Part shown: piece after piece, positions 2,449 through 56,573 of the stretch
Layout of the letters: each line of letters begins with the position of its first letter
How positions within the stretch are numbered: the stretch's first letter is position 1
Assembly: GCA_902386535.1 (NCBI GenBank)
Contig: CABMJK010000014.1
Span: 1-57,236, forward strand
From: Candidatus Burarchaeum australiense
GTDB taxonomy: Archaea > Micrarchaeota > Micrarchaeia > Burarchaeales > Burarchaeaceae
Length of the DNA stretch: 57,236 nucleotides
Reading direction: 5' to 3'
The notes under the pieces: generated by a model
The model's database searches: none
What the model was told of the DNA's origin: nothing
Seen by the model: the letters and a program-made list of their open reading frames with translations, nothing else
Program-made: the position numbers and the translations under genes

Positions 2449-4002
2449 TTGATGGAGCAGATACAAAAGCCCGTTAATCGTGCCAAAGTCGATGTTGCGA
2501 AAGAGCGGATGCGGTTTGGCGTGTATGAGGCTAGAAATGATGTCTCCAGAACCAGTCCCGAGTCGCTGGAGCGGGCATCTGCTCATTTTTCAGACCTGTC
2601 CTTCGGCCGCGGCGGCGACATGGCTTGGAAATTATCCAACGTAAGCGGCGAAGCATTTCAGAATTTTTTCCCAAGACATATTTTCACACGTGAAAAAAAA
2701 CAGGCAGCAAGGGAATTAGCTGCTGATTATGCGATTGAACATGCAAGGTCGATTTCTACTGATGAGTCATACCATCATTCAGGGTATTTTTCTTCACTGA
2801 ATCATCATTATCAAGACAGCATGTACTATCAGTCATCATACGCTGCATGTGTAATTTATGACGCCGTACAACTAACCAAAGAGGCCTATGGCATGGACCG
2901 GGCCGTTGAAGTTGCAAAAGAACTGGGCGCCAAGGACGATTTCCCAAAGCAATCGCGCAATCAGGCGACTGATGAATTCGCTGCTGATCATGCGTTTGAA
3001 CGTGCAAAGTCGATTCCTAAGGATGATCTAAACTTTGCTTCTGTAATTGATGAAGCCATACGAAAAACCAAAGAGGCCTATGGCTTAGACCGGGCTGTTG
3101 AAGTCGCAGAAGAACTGGGCAATAAGATGGCGGCCCTTGAACTTCTAGCGCGCGACTTATCATACAACTCATACGAGAATCCGCATCCAAACTATATGGG
3201 AAAACTCGAACGGCTAGATAGGTATGCTTCTGCGTTGGTCCAAGACCCTGCACTTGCGCCAGAGGATAAGTTAAGGGTTTTTGATATTAATTCTGATAAG
3301 CATGTTAGCTTTTATTGGGGGAATCCTAAGGAGCTAAAGACTAAAAATGAGTTTTTTTGGCGTTCTTTTAAGAAAGAAGATGTGCAGGCCAATATATCGG
3401 TCTATATACGGGGCATAGAGCTTCAAATTTCCAAAGCACAGTATCTGGAAACAATGGAAAGATGGAACGATGCAGCTAACGCCTGGAAGGGCGTGGCCGA
3501 TCAATTTGTCAATTTAGTAGGAGACGCGACCGAAAATAATGCGTTTAATCGCCAATTCGAAGCACTGAATAAGGGCCTAGCTGCTGTAGACAAGGCTCTT
3601 GGAGAGGTACCAGTGCATAAAGAAAAAATACTCATCCGCCTGAAGACCAACATGCTTGGACAACTAGCATTGATGGCGGTCGGGCAATTCACGCCTGCCA
3701 ATGTCCATAAATACTATGAAGCAGCGAGAGACCACATGCTGAATGTGCGTAATTACGAGGCGCTGGCCTACCTCAGCTTCAAACTGGGTACGCAGAGCAT
3801 TGGAGATAGTCCTTTCCCTGACGACGTAGCCCTCAAACTAGATGAAAAGTCCATATATTATCTGAATATGGCACGCGATGCCGCAATTGCTTCTAAAAAC
3901 ACAGTTATAGTGGAATATGCCTCCGAACTTCTAGACCAGTATACGGCATACCAGCGCCTAGAACAACGTCGTATCAATACTAGTGAAACGCGCCTATCAT
4001 GA
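2449..4002 (+). CDS. hypothetical protein with internal duplicated module (element cargo)
   Basis: 517-aa ORF with no TM segment. TKEAYG(M/L)DRAVEVA(K/E)ELG occurs twice. The underlying DNA (2876-2929 vs 3067-3120) is about 90% identical. Confidence 0.6.
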   Translation: MMEQIQKPVNRAKVDVAKERMRFGVYEARNDVSRTSPESLERASAHFSDLSFGRGGDMAWKLSNVSGEAFQNFFPRHIFTREKKQAARELAADYAIEHARSISTDESYHHSGYFSSLNHHYQDSMYYQSSYAACVIYDAVQLTKEAYGMDRAVEVAKELGAKDDFPKQSRNQATDEFAADHAFERAKSIPKDDLNFASVIDEAIRKTKEAYGLDRAVEVAEELGNKMAALELLARDLSYNSYENPHPNYMGKLERLDRYASALVQDPALAPEDKLRVFDINSDKHVSFYWGNPKELKTKNEFFWRSFKKEDVQANISVYIRGIELQISKAQYLETMERWNDAANAWKGVADQFVNLVGDATENNAFNRQFEALNKGLAAVDKALGEVPVHKEKILIRLKTNMLGQLALMAVGQFTPANVHKYYEAARDHMLNVRNYEALAYLSFKLGTQSIGDSPFPDDVALKLDEKSIYYLNMARDAAIASKNTVIVEYASELLDQYTAYQRLEQRRINTSETRLS

Positions 4003-4198
4003 GTTAGGCTTGCATTTTAGCTGGCGCCAGTTAGCGGGTCCTGTGTCTTGAATTCGCCTAGCCCCCGTCCTCGCTTTTCTTGTCCGAGATTTCGGCCTCA
4101 AGTTGCTCGTGGATCAGGTAGTGCAGTATAAATAGCTTGTTCTAGGTATTTGACGAGGCTACAGCCAGATCGCGGTACACCTATAGTATAAAGCTAGA

Positions 4199-4284: not shown

Positions 4285-4285
4285 C

Positions 4286-4306
4286 AAAAGAACCTACGGT
4301 TCTTTT
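4286..4306 (-). other. hairpin AAAAGAACC-GTA-GGTTCTTTT in the tRNA-Pro/tRNA-Leu spacer, just 5' of tRNA-Leu
   Basis: Perfect 9-bp stem with a 3-nt loop. The core AACCGTAGGTT is shared with the tRNA-Ile leader and intron repeat. Confidence 0.6.
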
Positions 4307-4330
4307 GAGAACTCCCTTCTTCAATGCGAG

Positions 4331-4466: not shown

Positions 4467-6370
4467 ATGACGGCCGACCCGTATCAGCAGGTGCGCGAGG
4501 AGATAGCGAAAAGGCTAGAGGAGGCTTGCCGCTTCTCAGGCTACGCGATCCACCTCACTGACGTGCTGCGCTCGCTCGAGGATGCCAAGCCCGAGTTCGG
4601 CGAAATTGCCTCCACCATTGCATTCACGATTGCAAAAAGCGCGCGCCGCAACCCGAAGGAAATAGCGCTCGAGCTTGCGAAGCGCTTCCCCGAGCACAGG
4701 TTCATTGAAAGGTGCGAGGTGCTCGGCCCCTATCTGAACTTCAGGCTCAGCACAGAATTCCTGAAATACGCGATTGACTCTGCCGTCGACCAGAACCGCA
4801 CCTACGGTTCGCGTGAGCCCAACGGCAAGCACGTCTACGTGGAATTCCCGTCAGTCAATCCGAACAAGCCCTGGCATATCGGCCACCTGCGCAACGCTTT
4901 GCTCGGCGACTCGGTCGCGCGCCTCCTTGCATTCACGGGCTTCGACGTCAAGCGCCTGGACTACATCGATGACCTTGGCCTTCAGGTCGCGCAGAGCGTC
5001 TGGGGTTATCTCAATATGAGCAACAAGATTGACATGAAGGCAGACCAATGGCTCGGCCGCCAGTACGTCGAAGTGGCCAAGCGCATCGCCGACCCCGAAG
5101 TGGAAAAGCAGGTGCGCGAGATAGTCGAGATAATGGAAAAGGGCGACCCGCTTTCCGCCGGTGCGGAAAGGGGCCCCTTTACCGAAGGTAAAGTGGGGGG
5201 CGAGATTTCGGCGACCGCGCGCAAGCTCTGCTCCCAGTGCGTAACGGCGCAATACGAAACCGCCTTCAGGCTCGGCATCTACCATGATTTGCTGATATGG
5301 GAAAGCGACCTCGTGCAGGCGCGCCTGCTCGAGCGCGCGATGGAAAAGGCCAAGGCCCTGGGCGCGGTGCAGATGAGACCGAGGGCAAGAACGCGGGCTG
5401 CCTTGTCGCAAAGCTCGCCGGGCGCGAGGAGTTCGCGCAGATGGAAAGCCCGGACAAGGTGCTGCTGCGCTCGGACGGCACTGCCACCTATGCGGCAAAA
5501 GACCTGGCCTTCGCGCTCTGGAAGTTCGGCGTGATAGATGCGCAGCTGAAATTCTCGGAGTTCCTCAAGCAGCCCAACGGCACCGCGCTTCTAACCTCCT
5601 CGCGGCAGGGCTCAAGTTCGCGCTTCCCTCCCGCTTCCGCAGCCATCAATGTGATAGGCGTCGAGCAGCAATATCCGCAGCGCGTTCTTTCGCTTCTCAT
5701 GGAGTCCATGGGCTTTGGCGAGCAGGCGGCCAACTACGTGCACCTTTCCTACGAGCACGCGGGCCTGCCCGACAAGAAGTTCTCGGGCCGCGAAGGCTCC
5801 TGGGTCGGCTACAGCGCCGACGAGGTAATAGACGAGGCCGAGGCGCGTGCCCTTACTGAAATACGCGCGCGCTTCGCGGACATGGCCGAGGACGAGAAGG
5901 CAAAGATAGCGCGCTCGGTGGGCATAGGCGCGGTGCGCTTCGACATGCTCAGGACCACGCCCGAGAAGAAAATAACTTTCACCTGGGAGAAGGCGCTGAA
6001 CTTCGAGGGCGATTCCGCGCCCTACATCCAATACTCGCACGCGCGCTGCACCCGCATACTCGAGAAGGCCGGCGAGGTGCTCTTCGGCGATATCAGCCTT
6101 CTGTCGGAAGCCGAGGAGCGCGACCTGGCCATGCACCTGGCCCGCTTCCCCAGCAAGGTCTCGCACGCGGCCATCGACATGCGGCCCCACCTGATAGCGG
6201 AATATTTGCTCGAGCTCTCGGCGCTCTTCAGCAAATTCTACAGTGCCTGCCCGGTTTTGAAGGCCGAGCCCCGCATGATGGAGGCCAGGCTCAAGCTCGT
6301 GAAGGCAACCCAGATAGTTCTTCGCAACGGCCTGAACCTGCTCGGAGTCGATGCGCCGGAGAGGATGTGA
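4467..6370 (+). CDS. argS: arginine--tRNA ligase, interrupted by an apparent 1-nt frameshift near 5372-5376
   Basis: The N-terminal part in frame 4467 carries the HIGH-type motif PWHIGHLRN. The C-terminal part in frame 5297 reads ...ETEGKNAGCLVAKL...LRSDGTATYAAKDLAF...YIQYSHARC...VDAPERM. The two frames overlap and together give a full-length ArgRS. Confidence 0.9.
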
Positions 6371-16876: not shown

Positions 16877-18433
16877 TCACAAACTCGTCTTCGCATCCAG
16901 TATCAGCTGCCTGATCTTCTCGCCCAGCCCCTTGATGGGCACCCTTTCCTGCCTCCCGTCATTCCTATACCTGATGGTCACGCTCCCCTTTTCCATGCTC
17001 TCGTAATCGAAAGTTATGCAGTAGGGCACGCCAATCTCGTCGGCCCTCGCATACCTCTTCCCAATCGAGCCGCTCTCATCATAATAGACTGACAGCCCCT
17101 CGTGCCTGAGCTCGCGCGCAACCAATTCGGCCTTCTCTGCCAGCCCGTCCTTCTTCATGAGCGGGAAAATGCAGGCGTCGAAGGGCGCGACAATTGGCGG
17201 GAAGTCAAACCATGCCCAGTCCCTCTTCTCCGCCCCGCCGCCCTTGCGATAGCCTTGCTCCAGAATGGCCCAGAACAGCCTGTCCACTCCGAAGGAAGGC
17301 TCGACCACGTGCGGCATGATTCTTCCAACACCCTCCAAATGCACGCTCAAATCCTGCGAGCTCGCCTTCGCATGGCTGGCCAAGTCAAAGTCGGTCCTGT
17401 AAGCCAGGCCCATCAGCTCCACCACGCCATAGCCCGACTCGACCTCGACATCGAAATTGCCCTTCGAATAGTGCGGCATCTCATTCGGCAGCAGCTGCCT
17501 GAACCAGAACTTCTCGCGCTTCAGGCCCACGGCCTCATAGAACTGCGAGGTGCGGTGCATGAAATAAGCGACAATCTCGTTCGGCACAATCTTCTTCTCC
17601 ACCAGCTCGCTGCACGAAAACTCCCTTACCCCCGTCTCGCCAGAACCTACGGTTCCGGCACCTCCCTCCATTTGCTGCATCTCCGCGGTCCTCACGCGCA
17701 CCCTTTTCTCCCTCACTTCCGCGAAATGCGGGTGCTTTGCCTCTGCCGAGTTGAAGAAATACTCGAGCTCCATCTGCGTGAACTCGCGCAGCCTCATGAG
17801 CGCCTGCCTCGGCGCAATCTCATTGCGGAAGCTCTTGCCAATCTGCCCCACGCCCAGCGGCAGCTTCGCCCCGAGCGCCCTGAAGATGCGCGGGAAGTCG
17901 GTGAAAATTCCCTGCGCCGTCTCGGGCCGCAAATAGCCTTTCTCAGCCTCGCCCGCCCCGATGCTGGTCTGGAACATCAGATTGAACCACACGACCTCTC
18001 CGTACTGTCCGCCGCACTTCCCGCACTTAATCCCTTTCTCCTTTATGAGCGCATCCATCTCGGCAGGCTTCATGCCCTCCGCCTTCTGCTTCGTCACTTC
18101 CTCAATCAGCTTGTCAGCCCGCACCCTAGTCTTGCACTTCCTGCACTGCACCATGGCATCGCCGAAATTGTCGACATGCCCGCTGGCCTTGAGCACTGGC
18201 TCGGGCAGCACGCTCGCGCTCTCAATCTCGTAGAACCCTTCGCGCCAAAGGAAAAGCTCGCGCCACGCATTCTCAATCTTCCTCTTCATCGCGGCCCCGA
18301 CCACGCCGTAGTCATAGAAGCCCGCCGTGTGCCCGTATATCTCGTTCGAGGGCATGAGGAAATTCCTTTTGAGCGCGATTTCCATGAGCTCTTCTTGCAC
18401 TTCAACAACCTCGTTCTCCCTATTGCCCGCCAT
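16877..18433 (-). CDS. glyS: glycine--tRNA ligase (archaeal/eukaryotic alpha2 type)
   Basis: FRNEIAPRQALMRLREFTQMELEYF, EPSFGVDR and an anticodon-binding C-terminus, all typical of class II GlyRS. Confidence 0.95.
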   Translation of the reverse strand: MAGNRENEVVEVQEELMEIALKRNFLMPSNEIYGHTAGFYDYGVVGAAMKRKIENAWRELFLWREGFYEIESASVLPEPVLKASGHVDNFGDAMVQCRKCKTRVRADKLIEEVTKQKAEGMKPAEMDALIKEKGIKCGKCGGQYGEVVWFNLMFQTSIGAGEAEKGYLRPETAQGIFTDFPRIFRALGAKLPLGVGQIGKSFRNEIAPRQALMRLREFTQMELEYFFNSAEAKHPHFAEVREKRVRVRTAEMQQMEGGAGTVGSGETGVREFSCSELVEKKIVPNEIVAYFMHRTSQFYEAVGLKREKFWFRQLLPNEMPHYSKGNFDVEVESGYGVVELMGLAYRTDFDLASHAKASSQDLSVHLEGVGRIMPHVVEPSFGVDRLFWAILEQGYRKGGGAEKRDWAWFDFPPIVAPFDACIFPLMKKDGLAEKAELVARELRHEGLSVYYDESGSIGKRYARADEIGVPYCITFDYESMEKGSVTIRYRNDGRQERVPIKGLGEKIRQLILDAKTSL

Positions 18434-42905: not shown

Positions 42906-42948
42906 GTCAAAACACCTAAGGGAATTTGCCGCAGGCCGCACTCACTCC

Positions 42949-43596
42949 TTATCGCGTGCTTCTCGCCATGCGCTCCGTCTCGTCCCGCTTCTTTATAGCG
43001 TAACTGTTTATGCTGTTCTGCGATGCAAGCACGATTTCGTCCGCCAGCGCCTGCCCGAGCGTCTTCGGGTTGTTGAACGCTGCCATGATGGCCGAAAGCG
43101 CCAGATTCCTGAGATCCATGTCCAGCCTTCTCTGGGGAGAAACGTCCACTGCCACCTGGTAGGAAATGCCGCCGTACTGCACGCGGGTCGTGTCCTCGCG
43201 CGGCGCCGTGTTCTTGAGCGCGAGAACGAGCACCTGCACCGGGTTCTGGTTCGTCCTCTTCGCGATGTCGGCGAACGCCTCCTCCACGGTCTTCATGGCC
43301 TTCGACTTCTTGCCCTGCAGCTTGCCGTGCGTGCGAATGACCTTTCCGCTCGTCTTCTCGCCCGTGCCTCCCCTCATCAGCTTGTTCACGAGCCGCTCGA
43401 CGATGTTCACCCGCATCTTGCCGAACTGCTTGTGCGCCTGCCTTCCGTGCGAGTGGGGCAGCGAGACCGGGGTCAGGTTTATGTAGGGCCCGAGGCTCAG
43501 GTCGTCCACCTTCACTTCGCTCATGTCGTATTTGTTGAAAATCATTTCAGCCATAAGATCACACCGCGTTGTTTCCCAATCGAGTTTCAGTTTCAA
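42949..43596 (-). CDS. rps7: 30S ribosomal protein S7 (uS7)
   Basis: Sequence and position (between S12 and EF-2) match the conserved str-like cluster. Confidence 0.95.
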   Translation of the reverse strand: MKLKLDWETTRCDLMAEMIFNKYDMSEVKVDDLSLGPYINLTPVSLPHSHGRQAHKQFGKMRVNIVERLVNKLMRGGTGEKTSGKVIRTHGKLQGKKSKAMKTVEEAFADIAKRTNQNPVQVLVLALKNTAPREDTTRVQYGGISYQVAVDVSPQRRLDMDLRNLALSAIMAAFNNPKTLGQALADEIVLASQNSINSYAIKKRDETERMARSTR

Positions 43597-56291: not shown

Positions 56292-56348
56292 GCCCCGGCA
56301 ACCGCCCGCGCGGACCGCTTAATCAGTTAAAAATATTCGCTAATGTAA

Positions 56349-56380
56349 AGGGAAGGTATCGGAAACCGTAGGTTTCTGAT
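56349..56380 (+). repeat. 32-nt direct repeat copy 1 (tRNA-Ile 5' leader)
   Basis: AGGGAAGGTATCGGAAACCGTAGGTTTCTGAT ends 4 nt before the tRNA 5' end. It contains the hairpin GAAACC-GTA-GGTTTC (56362-56376). Confidence 0.9.
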
Positions 56381-56384
56381 TTTT

Positions 56385-56509
56385 GGGCCGGTAGCTTAGC
56401 CTGGTTGGAGCGCTCGGCTGATAGAACCCTGAAGGTTTCCGAGGGAAGGTATCGGAAACCGTAGGTTTCTGATACCGAGAGGTCCTGCGTTCAAATCGCA
56501 GTCGGCCCA
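56385..56509 (+). tRNA. tRNA-Ile (anticodon GAT) with 50-nt canonical-position intron (56424-56473)
   Basis: The exons give GGGCCGG-TA-GCTT-AGCCTGGTTG-GAGC-G-CTCGG-CTGATA|A-CCGAG-AGGTC-CTGCG-TTCAAAT-CGCAG-TCGGCCC-A. The intron lies between positions 37 and 38. Confidence 0.85.
56442..56473 (+). repeat. 32-nt direct repeat copy 2 (last 32 nt of the tRNA-Ile intron)
   Basis: Identical to 56349-56380. It ends exactly at the predicted 3' splice site. Confidence 0.9.
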
Positions 56510-56513
56510 CTAA

Positions 56514-56518
56514 TTTTT
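56514..56518 (+). terminator. oligo-T tract downstream of tRNA-Ile
   Basis: TTTTT lies 5 nt after the tRNA 3' end. Confidence 0.3.
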
Positions 56519-56573
56519 CTGACCCTTGCCGATCTGTGCATATTTTTTTAAATTTTTCCGCCCATGCACTAGC

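Follow-up and report, generated by a model that had tools for sequence, protein, structure and literature searches.

The 57,236-nt stretch of archaeal DNA analysed here (the window) carries a tRNA-Ile(GAU) gene in which one 32-nt sequence, AGGGAAGGTATCGGAAACCGTAGGTTTCTGAT, occurs twice, once in the 5' leader and once in the intron. The gene upstream encodes transcription factor B (TFB), and its nearest named homolog is that of Candidatus Burarchaeum (93% identity), among sequences of the Micrarchaeota (DPANN). The two 32-mers are 100% identical and lie 93 nt apart, where no such repeat would be expected by chance. An earlier note had reported this pair and considered it not to be accidental. 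Exact matching bears out its coordinates and that judgement, and the parse of the tRNA upholds the end points that it gave: one copy ends 4 nt before the mature 5' end, and the other forms the last 32 nt of a 50-nt intron, up to the 3' splice site. The repeat is called the cassette below. The features of the locus are as follows, with scores from the covariance model R1, which was built from ten cassette variants.

56323..56337, plus strand: putative archaeal TFB recognition element (BRE)/TATA region, AGTTAAAAATATT, a block conserved in the window and at the orthologous loci L001, L003, and L030.
56349..56380, plus strand: cassette copy 1, in the tRNA-Ile 5' leader/upstream region; head AGGGAAGGT followed by the hairpin ATCGGAAACC-GTA-GGTTTCTGAT; exact match, 46 bits with R1.
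56385..56509, plus strand: tRNA-Ile(GAU) gene; Rfam RF00005, 47.5 bits; cloverleaf pairs checked by hand.
56442..56473, plus strand: cassette copy 2, the final 32 nt of the tRNA-Ile intron, ending exactly at the 3' splice site.

Exon 1 of the tRNA spans 56385-56423, the 50-nt intron lies at 56424-56473 (position 37/38), and exon 2 spans 56474-56509. The Rfam match shows a 51-nt insertion within the anticodon loop, and ARAGORN gives no call for the gene. As run, ARAGORN is blind to all intron-containing tRNAs encountered here (window 56385-56509; L010 2332-2458; L074 ~1600-1720), so that standard annotation would under-count the tRNAs of this lineage.

The gap between the leader copy and G1 of the tRNA consists of TTTT. 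The hairpin GAAACC-GTA-GGTTTC that the earlier note had described is real and is longer than it had stated: the stem ATCGGAAACC-GTA-GGTTTCTGAT has 10 bp, a figure that rises to 13 bp in the intron copy if the exon bases ACC are counted. RNA folding predicts that the leader copy folds by itself (P=0.74), with pairing probabilities of at most 0.003 between leader and intron copies; a leader-intron duplex and a bulge-helix-bulge (BHB) motif in the leader were rejected on this basis. Judged by the typical archaeal spacing between TATA and start, transcription would begin near 56358-56362, at the foot of the leader hairpin. A scan for sigma-70 promoters and intrinsic terminators, which is ill-suited to archaea, found nothing. 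In the trailer, AATTTTTCTGACC at 56512-56524 is similar to the 3' arm of the cassette, and a like sequence, AATTTTTCCGCCC, lies 39 nt downstream (56551-56563).

Dispersal of the cassette

The cassette is not confined to the tRNA-Ile gene. The apex 11-mer AACCGTAGGTT occurs four times in the window against 0.01 expected, and R1 detects exactly four copies (46, 41.9, 39.1, and 34.9 bits), the next best match scoring 11 bits. The two additional copies are variants.

4285..4318, minus strand: cassette copy 3, variant AAGGGAGTTCTCAAAAGAACC-GTA-GGTTCTTTTG; takes up the whole tRNA-Pro(CGG)/tRNA-Leu(CAG) spacer, as far as the tRNA-Leu 5' end; 34.9 bits.
17636..17671, minus strand: cassette copy 4, variant AGGGAGGT-GCCGGAACC-GTA-GGTTCTGGC; in frame within the glycyl-tRNA synthetase (GlyRS) gene (16877-18433, minus strand); 41.9 bits.

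Copy 4 adds nine residues, MEGGAGTVG, to GlyRS. According to the protein alignment, these residues are absent from seven orthologs, including the Burarchaeum enzyme of 87-89% identity. Alignment with the DNA of Ca. Burarchaeum gives a clean 27-nt in-frame insertion, which is direct evidence of a cassette arriving as inserted DNA.

A 26-nt core was scanned against metagenome contigs, and diverged copies were sought by Hamming and covariance-model searches. The core identified seven further loci. The full 32-mer is intact in each of them, and the flanks are unrelated. These contexts, together with those of diverged variants, are listed below.

L011: exact 32-mer, 2 nt 5' of the tRNA-Ala gene that precedes the 23S rRNA gene.
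L006 and L008: exact 32-mer, directly adjoining the discriminator base at the 3' end of an opposite-strand tRNA-Pro(UGG).
L010: exact 32-mer, antisense, within the 53-nt intron of tRNA-Arg(UCG); also a diverged variant that ends 3 nt before tRNA-Met.
L012: exact 32-mer in the S14-S8 spacer; also two identical copies of a diverged variant, directly 5' of start codons in a ribosomal-protein operon.
L009: exact 32-mer, antisense, in the S7-EF2 spacer, overlapping the S7 stop codon.
L007: exact 32-mer downstream of the leucyl-tRNA synthetase (LeuRS) gene, on an archaeal contig of 35% GC.
L074: diverged variant that ends exactly at the tRNA-Pro(CGG) 5' end.
L066: diverged variant, intergenic.

The earlier note had proposed scanning other tRNA loci for AACCGTAGGTT, and the motif is indeed found in the tRNA-Leu leader of the window and in the tRNA-Met, tRNA-Ala, and tRNA-Pro leaders of relatives. 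Orthologous sites differ in whether they are occupied. The tRNA-Pro(CGG) leader holds a cassette in L074 and none in the window, and the same is true of the S7-EF2 spacer in L009 and the window. The S7 and EF-2 proteins of the window and L009 are 82-84% identical, whereas the cassettes are identical at 32/32 positions. Such identity between genera reflects either a tight constraint on the whole sequence or renewal by recent spread or gene conversion. The S7-EF2 spacer of the window (~42923-42955, minus strand) contains an unrelated 30-nt sequence of similar length, which has only the tail TTCCCTTA(A)GGTG in common and may be a decayed copy.

The cassette has a characteristic architecture: a purine-rich head (AAAGGGAAGG), a stem of 9-10 bp, the invariant apex AACC-GUA-GGUU, and the end CUGAU. 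The earlier note had taken CTGAT for a mimic of the anticodon loop. This sequence belongs to the element in every copy, whatever the context, so it is not a specific anticodon-loop mimic. Among the ten variants, 94.7% of stem cells are paired and 7/10 pairs have changed on both sides, a result that 0/500 shuffles equal. The pairing collapses in shifted registers, and the head GGAAGG and the apex are nearly constant. The family is sharply bounded, has many dispersed copies, and is a short imperfect palindrome, the traits by which elements of the Rickettsia palindromic element (RPE) and repetitive extragenic palindrome (REP) type are recognised. Its placement is polar. In at least 10 of 13 archaeal contexts, the CTGAT end of the hairpin comes within 0-4 nt of a gene boundary, and the purine head is on the far side. 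The boundaries concerned are tRNA 5' ends, tRNA 3' ends, an exon junction, stop codons, and start codons.

Copies of the cassette were also found in viral sequences. IMG/VR scans recovered a form one base shorter, the 31-mer AAAGGGAAGGT-TCGGAAACC-GTA-GGTTTCTGAT, in contigs of 23-33% GC, and a looser pattern and the covariance model added more varied viral copies. These contigs encode RPB1 domains, an MSV199 domain, Hint, Nudix, and ClpP, which identifies them as contigs of giant viruses (nucleocytoplasmic large DNA viruses, NCLDV). At least nine viral copies follow, at 0-3 nt, the stop codon of a gene encoded on the opposite strand, so that the mRNA would read stop codon, hairpin, and pyrimidine tract. 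ARAGORN, which misses intron-containing tRNAs, reports no tRNA gene beside the viral copies. In the giant-virus locus L073 (2440-2700), a cassette ends each 108-nt unit of a tandem repeat and provides the last codons and the stop of an RPE65-like open reading frame (ORF). The giant-virus locus L079 has eight copies in 14.8 kb, mostly right after stop codons.

The presence of the same short sequence in very different genomes, together with a break of synteny at the cassette between L006 and L008, could raise the suspicion of an assembly or library artefact, such as a technical oligonucleotide or chimeric junctions. Such an origin is hardly credible. Divergence among orthologous copies is compensated in the stems, the GlyRS variant is cleanly inserted and in frame, archaea and viruses each have a subfamily of their own (32-mer and 31-mer, respectively), and the sequence is absent from phage and plasmid databases. 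L006 and L008 differ in that a complete module has been inverted: the promoter, tRNA-Pro(UGG), and the cassette abutting its 3' end (L006 6330-6640; L008 1-400) are turned round as one unit between homologous flanking genes.

Some further observations concern the surroundings of the copies. In L007 (2250-2560, minus strand), the exact 32-mer stands in a GC-rich island of several hairpins downstream of LeuRS, which ends with GGTAGGGGTGGCGGGGCGGCTGGGGTG and then TTTTT; the island has no Rfam match and may be an unannotated structured RNA. The tRNA-Ile 3' trailer of L066 (~3043-3200) has two tandem hairpins, AAAGGGGGGArGTwTCCCCCCTT, each followed by GACCTTCCC (antisense of the cassette head), with a third partial copy about 120 nt further on. 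In the window, arginyl-tRNA synthetase is split over two overlapping reading frames on the plus strand (4467-5534 and 5297-6370), which may reflect a frameshift, a sequencing or assembly error, or a pseudogene.

The tRNA-Ile intron and its history

A 7-nt anticodon loop is regained only by excision at 37/38 (leaving A38) or at 38/39 (leaving G38), and the geometry of the BHB motif decides in favour of 37/38. The motif, in its relaxed hBHBh' form, was modelled by hand and consists of the following parts (all on the plus strand).

56413..56479: relaxed hBHBh' splice motif as a whole.
56413-17 with 56475-79: h, the anticodon stem (5 bp).
56418-21 with 56468-71: central helix H; pairs C-G, U.U, G-C, A-U, bases 32-35 (CUGA) against UCUG.
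56422-24: 5' bulge UAG (U36-A37-G).
56425-28 with 56464-67: h' helix, AACC with GGUU.
56434-42 with 56452-60: inner 9-bp stem of the intron.
56472-74: 3' bulge AUA (A-U-A38).

Two 3-nt bulges flank a 4-bp helix and the cleavage sites fall within the bulges, as the hBHBh' geometry demands; three of the four pairs of the central helix are formed, and the U33.U mismatch makes the motif a relaxed one. In this model, the 3' arm of the intron copy, GGTT-TCTG-AT, would supply h', H', and the first two bases of the 3' bulge, which is the whole 3' strand of the motif. Its 5' arm would pair with the upstream intron segment GGTTTCCGA (56434-56442), a segment that matches the cassette's own 3' arm at 8/9 positions. 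The earlier note had suggested looking for BHB motifs at both the leader and the intron: a relaxed hBHBh' can be drawn at 37/38, although it is not the minimum free energy (MFE) fold, and the leader copy forms none.

The geometry is kept in all six recovered orthologous tRNA-Ile introns despite their differing sequences, and h' covaries among them (AACC/GGUU, AGCC/GGUU, AAUU/GGUU, AUUU/AGGU). In the tRNA-Arg intron of L010, the cassette and a partial inverted copy form the h' helix of a perfect hBHBh'. Micrarchaeum is reported to possess an epsilon2 splicing endonuclease of broad specificity, able to cleave relaxed BHBs, as well as tRNAs with many introns at unusual positions (PMC3239211), and a relaxed motif in the window's lineage fits this enzyme. 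On the modelled geometry, the intron copy would be functional intron sequence that forms a strand of the splice motif, and splicing would probably proceed through this BHB. Two other roles of the intron were considered and rejected. An intron-encoded box C/D sRNA, as in archaeal tRNA-Trp, could use the CUGA at the 3' end, yet the intron has no C box (RUGAUGA) and no Rfam match. A hammerhead-like core (CUGAUGA...GAAA) lacks, on inspection, the required G8 and A9.

The history of the locus was reconstructed from loci that share the TFB-tRNA-Ile synteny and from those that the 5' exon identified in a genome scan.

Window: exact 32-mer in the leader; cassette-type intron at 37/38.
L001 and L032 (Ca. 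Burarchaeum; TFB 93%): homologous hairpin in the leader, differing at 9/32 positions, with compensated stem and the loop TGCAC; the 3' 35 nt of the intron at 37/38 are the same as in the window and the 5' part differs (several changes); a second, T-loop intron is also present.
L003 (TFB 87%): recognisable leader cassette; no intron at 37/38.
L030 (exon 2 the same as in L003 over the available part): leader AAGGAAGGTGTCGGAAAC-GTA-GTTTCTGAC; older intron type (…GTCGAAACC-cgctgga-GGTTTCGAC).
L004 and L062 (TFB 82% for L004): no leader cassette; older intron type.
L005 (TFB 80%): no leader cassette; short 38-nt intron.
L066 (exon 2 identical to L003): no leader cassette; no intron.

The leader cassette is thus present in the window, L001, L003, and L030, with stems compensated in the three diverged copies, and absent from L004, L005, L062, and L066. 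L030 combines a leader cassette with the old intron type, which makes the leader copy older than the cassette-type intron. The intron copy is identical in Ca. Burarchaeum (L001 4037-4068) and therefore predates the split between that lineage and the window's. The most economical order of events, read from these sequences, is as follows. An intron at 37/38 of tRNA-Ile was there at the outset; a leader cassette then arose in the shared ancestor of the window, L001, L003, and L030; and a cassette copy finally took the place of the 3' two-thirds of the intron, in the shared ancestor of the window and Ca. Burarchaeum. The earlier suggestion that the intron was built from the leader, or the reverse, holds in so far as the leader copy is the older one and the 3' part of the intron was remodelled by a cassette. 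It fails in that an intron at 37/38 predates both copies, and the donor of the intron cassette need not have been the leader copy.

The same comparison bears on a recent private duplication, or a gene conversion between leader and intron, without wider meaning. The copies are 100% identical at a distance of 93 nt, and local conversion in the window's lineage would be possible, since the leader of L001 has diverged at 9/32 positions while that of the window equals the intron copy. This explanation is nonetheless very improbable. The same 32-mer stands in at least seven other loci in unrelated contexts, the window itself contains two further variants, and the identical intron copy in Ca. Burarchaeum predates the split of the lineages. 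As a sufficient explanation, the local duplication that the earlier note had offered as its third option is refuted by the identical 32-mers in unrelated contexts of other genomes and by the further variants in the window.

The arms of the old intron's hairpin (ATCGAAAACC and GGTTTTCGAT) were already similar to those of the cassette. This likeness could have guided the replacement, or else the family could descend from this intron. In the latter case, the old 3' hairpin (head CTGGAATGC with ATCGAAAACC...GGTTTTCGAT) would be ancestral, and the cassette would have spread from it to leaders, spacers, and other introns, for example via excised intron RNA. The old-type introns of L004, L062, and L030, with near-matching arms and a similar head, are in keeping with such a descent, as is the exact fit of the cassette 3' arm to the tRNA-Ile BHB. 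We consider it unlikely all the same. The old introns reach just 12-14 bits in the covariance model (E about 0.4-0.8), diverse giant-virus variants were found without a nearby tRNA, and the present sampling gives no direction of descent.

Extra non-canonical T-loop introns occur in the tRNA-Ile, tRNA-Ala, and tRNA-Pro genes of relatives (L001 ~4090-4140; L030 ~2785 to the locus end; L011 ~2510-2555; L074 ~1625-1665). The tRNA-Ile of the window has no T-loop intron, and the two-intron tRNA-Ile of Ca. Burarchaeum escapes Rfam at the gathering threshold. A second, unrelated hairpin family, GGGGGCAC..GCCCCC(TT)..AACCCC, is present at L011 2514-2548, L030 2789-2820, L074 1572-1606, L068 2997-3031, and L006 7404-7438, and is not present in the window. 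Its contexts are T-loop introns of tRNA-Ala and tRNA-Ile, a tRNA-Pro 3' trailer, and the position directly after the GlyRS stop in Ca. Burarchaeum. This family, too, is found both in T-loop introns and beside tRNAs, which suggests that such sharing is general in the lineage.

Nature of the cassette

The two 32-mers of the tRNA-Ile gene are probably copies of a hairpin cassette dispersed in Micrarchaeota genomes of the Ca. Burarchaeum kind, that is, of a spreading and partly co-opted palindromic element. The cassette would spread at the level of DNA, by transposition or through copying by recombination or gene conversion. Copies would persist where extra sequence is harmless: against gene boundaries, in tRNA introns that are spliced out, and, in one case, in a GlyRS surface loop with the reading frame kept. 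The leader copy, set against a tRNA 5' end, is where members of the family usually lie. In the intron, the 3' arm would pair with anticodon-loop bases 32-35 and the first intron bases to become the 3' strand of the relaxed BHB, and the splicing endonuclease would thereby excise the cassette with the intron. The identity of the two copies would then reflect the conserved master sequence of the family, or recent copying from that master, rather than a one-off duplication of 32 nt.

Several points weigh against this interpretation. The compensatory upkeep of the stem in orthologous leader copies and the polarity are what a selected cis-acting signal would display, and every archaeal context is a gene of the translation apparatus. 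No transposase, target-site duplication, or terminal inverted repeat lies next to any copy within the few kb inspected per locus, so that mobility is deduced only from distribution. The 32/32 identity across genera demands strong constraint or very recent spread. The scans of large collections required exact matches, which biases both copy numbers and copy identity. As for the intron, the BHB conformer has -44.8 kcal/mol against -56.8 kcal/mol for the MFE fold, 12 kcal/mol above the minimum; its helices have near-zero ensemble probability, and its central helix contains the U.U mismatch.

Some of these points are what one would expect if the cassette is mainly a selected cis-acting signal, a hairpin of RNA (or DNA) by which one protein would mark or process the ends of stable-RNA and translation-gene transcripts (at 5' leaders, 3' trailers, and intercistronic spacers), with occasional duplicates kept because they are useful. 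We regard this as a serious possibility, although not as the probable one. It would explain the strong stem covariation with an invariant head and apex, the orientation of the hairpin end towards gene boundaries, and the restriction of archaeal contexts to translation genes. The promoter/tRNA-Pro/cassette module has remained intact through inversion, leader copies have been retained in four lineages, copies are identical at 32/32 positions across genera, and the giant-virus copies just past stop codons (at least nine, at 0-3 nt) resemble 3'-end hairpins. Against a signal of this kind stand the occurrence of cassettes both in sense and in antisense to transcription (the latter in L009, at tRNA-Pro, and in the intron of L010) and the in-frame copy inside GlyRS. 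Moreover, its presence or absence at orthologous sites of close relatives means that no site strictly needs it. The orthologous leader copy of L001 differs at 9/32 positions, the loop included; no candidate binding protein was identified, and no Rfam family matches. The shared recognition element that the earlier note had envisaged fares accordingly: the hairpin does covary and does face gene boundaries, but the two orientations, the GlyRS copy, and the differences among close relatives weaken it. The covariation and polarity point to a useful role of some copies, whether as RNA or as DNA hairpins.

The viral copies invite a wider idea, which we hold to be doubtful as a whole. A single hairpin family of ~32 nt might be common, almost to the base, to DPANN archaea and eukaryotic giant viruses and mark gene ends with like polarity. 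In the archaea, it might have become a vehicle of tRNA intron remodelling, perhaps of intron gain, in either orientation, with the BHB rule selecting the survivors. If this were true, either a mobile mini-element would cross domains or a conserved protein would read the hairpin, and the first concrete donor sequence for archaeal 'intron transposition' would be in hand.

Other known classes of element were weighed as well. The cassette is not a miniature inverted-repeat transposable element (MITE): the flanks of 11 exact copies share no target-site duplication, and the hairpin itself is the only inverted repeat. It is not a CRISPR repeat, since copies are solitary and L073, which alone looks like an array, is a tandem repeat of 108 nt in which the 'spacers' recur as well. 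An att site of a tRNA-targeting element does not fit repeats that are only 93 nt from each other, with nothing between them but exon 1 and a portion of the intron, and that do not themselves consist of tRNA exon sequence. A relic or mimic of the 3' end of small-subunit rRNA (AAGGTA..ACCGTAGG) is marginal, as 23-330 of 5000 shuffles equal it, uncorrected for multiple comparisons. No Rfam family matches the cassette, only tRNA and rRNA being found around its copies; phage and plasmid collections yield only chance-level matches (E about 0.9), and the sequence was not found in the searchable literature.

Comparison with known systems

Intron transposition among tRNAs has been described in the Thermoproteales (Fujishima et al. 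2010, as summarised in PMC4090602), and the disruption of tRNA genes driven by mobile elements in Caldiarchaeum (PMC3293823). As in these models, introns of different tRNAs (those of tRNA-Ile and tRNA-Arg in the present case) contain near-identical sequence, the change occurs at the level of DNA, and the BHB requirement sets what is tolerated. Unlike in intron transposition, the unit is a 32-nt cassette that is also found outside tRNAs, in one ORF as well as in leaders, trailers, and mRNA spacers, and that may lie either way round; it altered an intron already in place instead of founding a new one, and the host is a DPANN archaeon. Unlike in the mobile-element model, no recombinase-carrying element is apparent. 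Archaeal intron transposition is inferred from similar introns in different tRNAs, and we know of no donor element or mechanism for it.

RPE, REP, and organellar GC-cluster palindromes are short dispersed hairpin repeats, mostly intergenic near gene ends, whose hairpins are kept by compensatory changes. They occasionally insert in frame in protein genes, and in RNA genes. The cassette resembles RPE and REP elements in its dispersal, in the maintenance of its hairpin, and in its insertion polymorphism at orthologous sites, including the in-frame case of GlyRS. It is much smaller than RPEs (32 nt against about 100-150 nt). The transposase of REP elements is known; the cassette differs from them by its head, AGGGAAGG, by the absence of a GTAG/GGAG signature, and in that no RAYT-like transposase ORF was seen within the few kb inspected per locus. 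In contrast to RPE, REP, and GC clusters, the cassette is archaeal, is polar towards gene boundaries, and, on the BHB model, is part of a splice motif.

The 3' ends of Mimiviridae transcripts reportedly follow a 'hairpin rule', with signals that are AT-rich palindromes unrelated in sequence. The NCLDV cassettes agree with this rule in their position 0-3 nt past stop codons and in the hairpin in the sense of the mRNA. They differ from it in their homology to an archaeal repeat and in a conserved head and apex, richer in GC, that the copies have in common.

Leaders that resemble introns are also known from the split and permuted tRNAs of Nanoarchaeum, Caldivirga, and Thermofilum (PMC3218864, PMC2237900). 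The tRNA-Ile leader, too, is similar in sequence to the intron at 37/38. Unlike in those tRNAs, the tRNA-Ile gene is contiguous, its leader precedes the 5' exon rather than a 3' half, and neither leader-intron pairing nor a leader BHB is predicted.

Set against these systems, the finding is a short dispersed palindromic element with an unusual link to the evolution of tRNA introns, and it is more than a local duplication. Very compact DPANN genomes carry families of tiny palindromic repeats that standard tRNA finders and annotators miss. The homology with giant viruses, if confirmed, would point to a mobile element or a recognition system shared across very distant hosts. A defined 32-nt cassette that lies both outside tRNAs and in two tRNA introns, that allows the order of events to be reconstructed, and that would be part of the splice motif makes intron gain and replacement testable.

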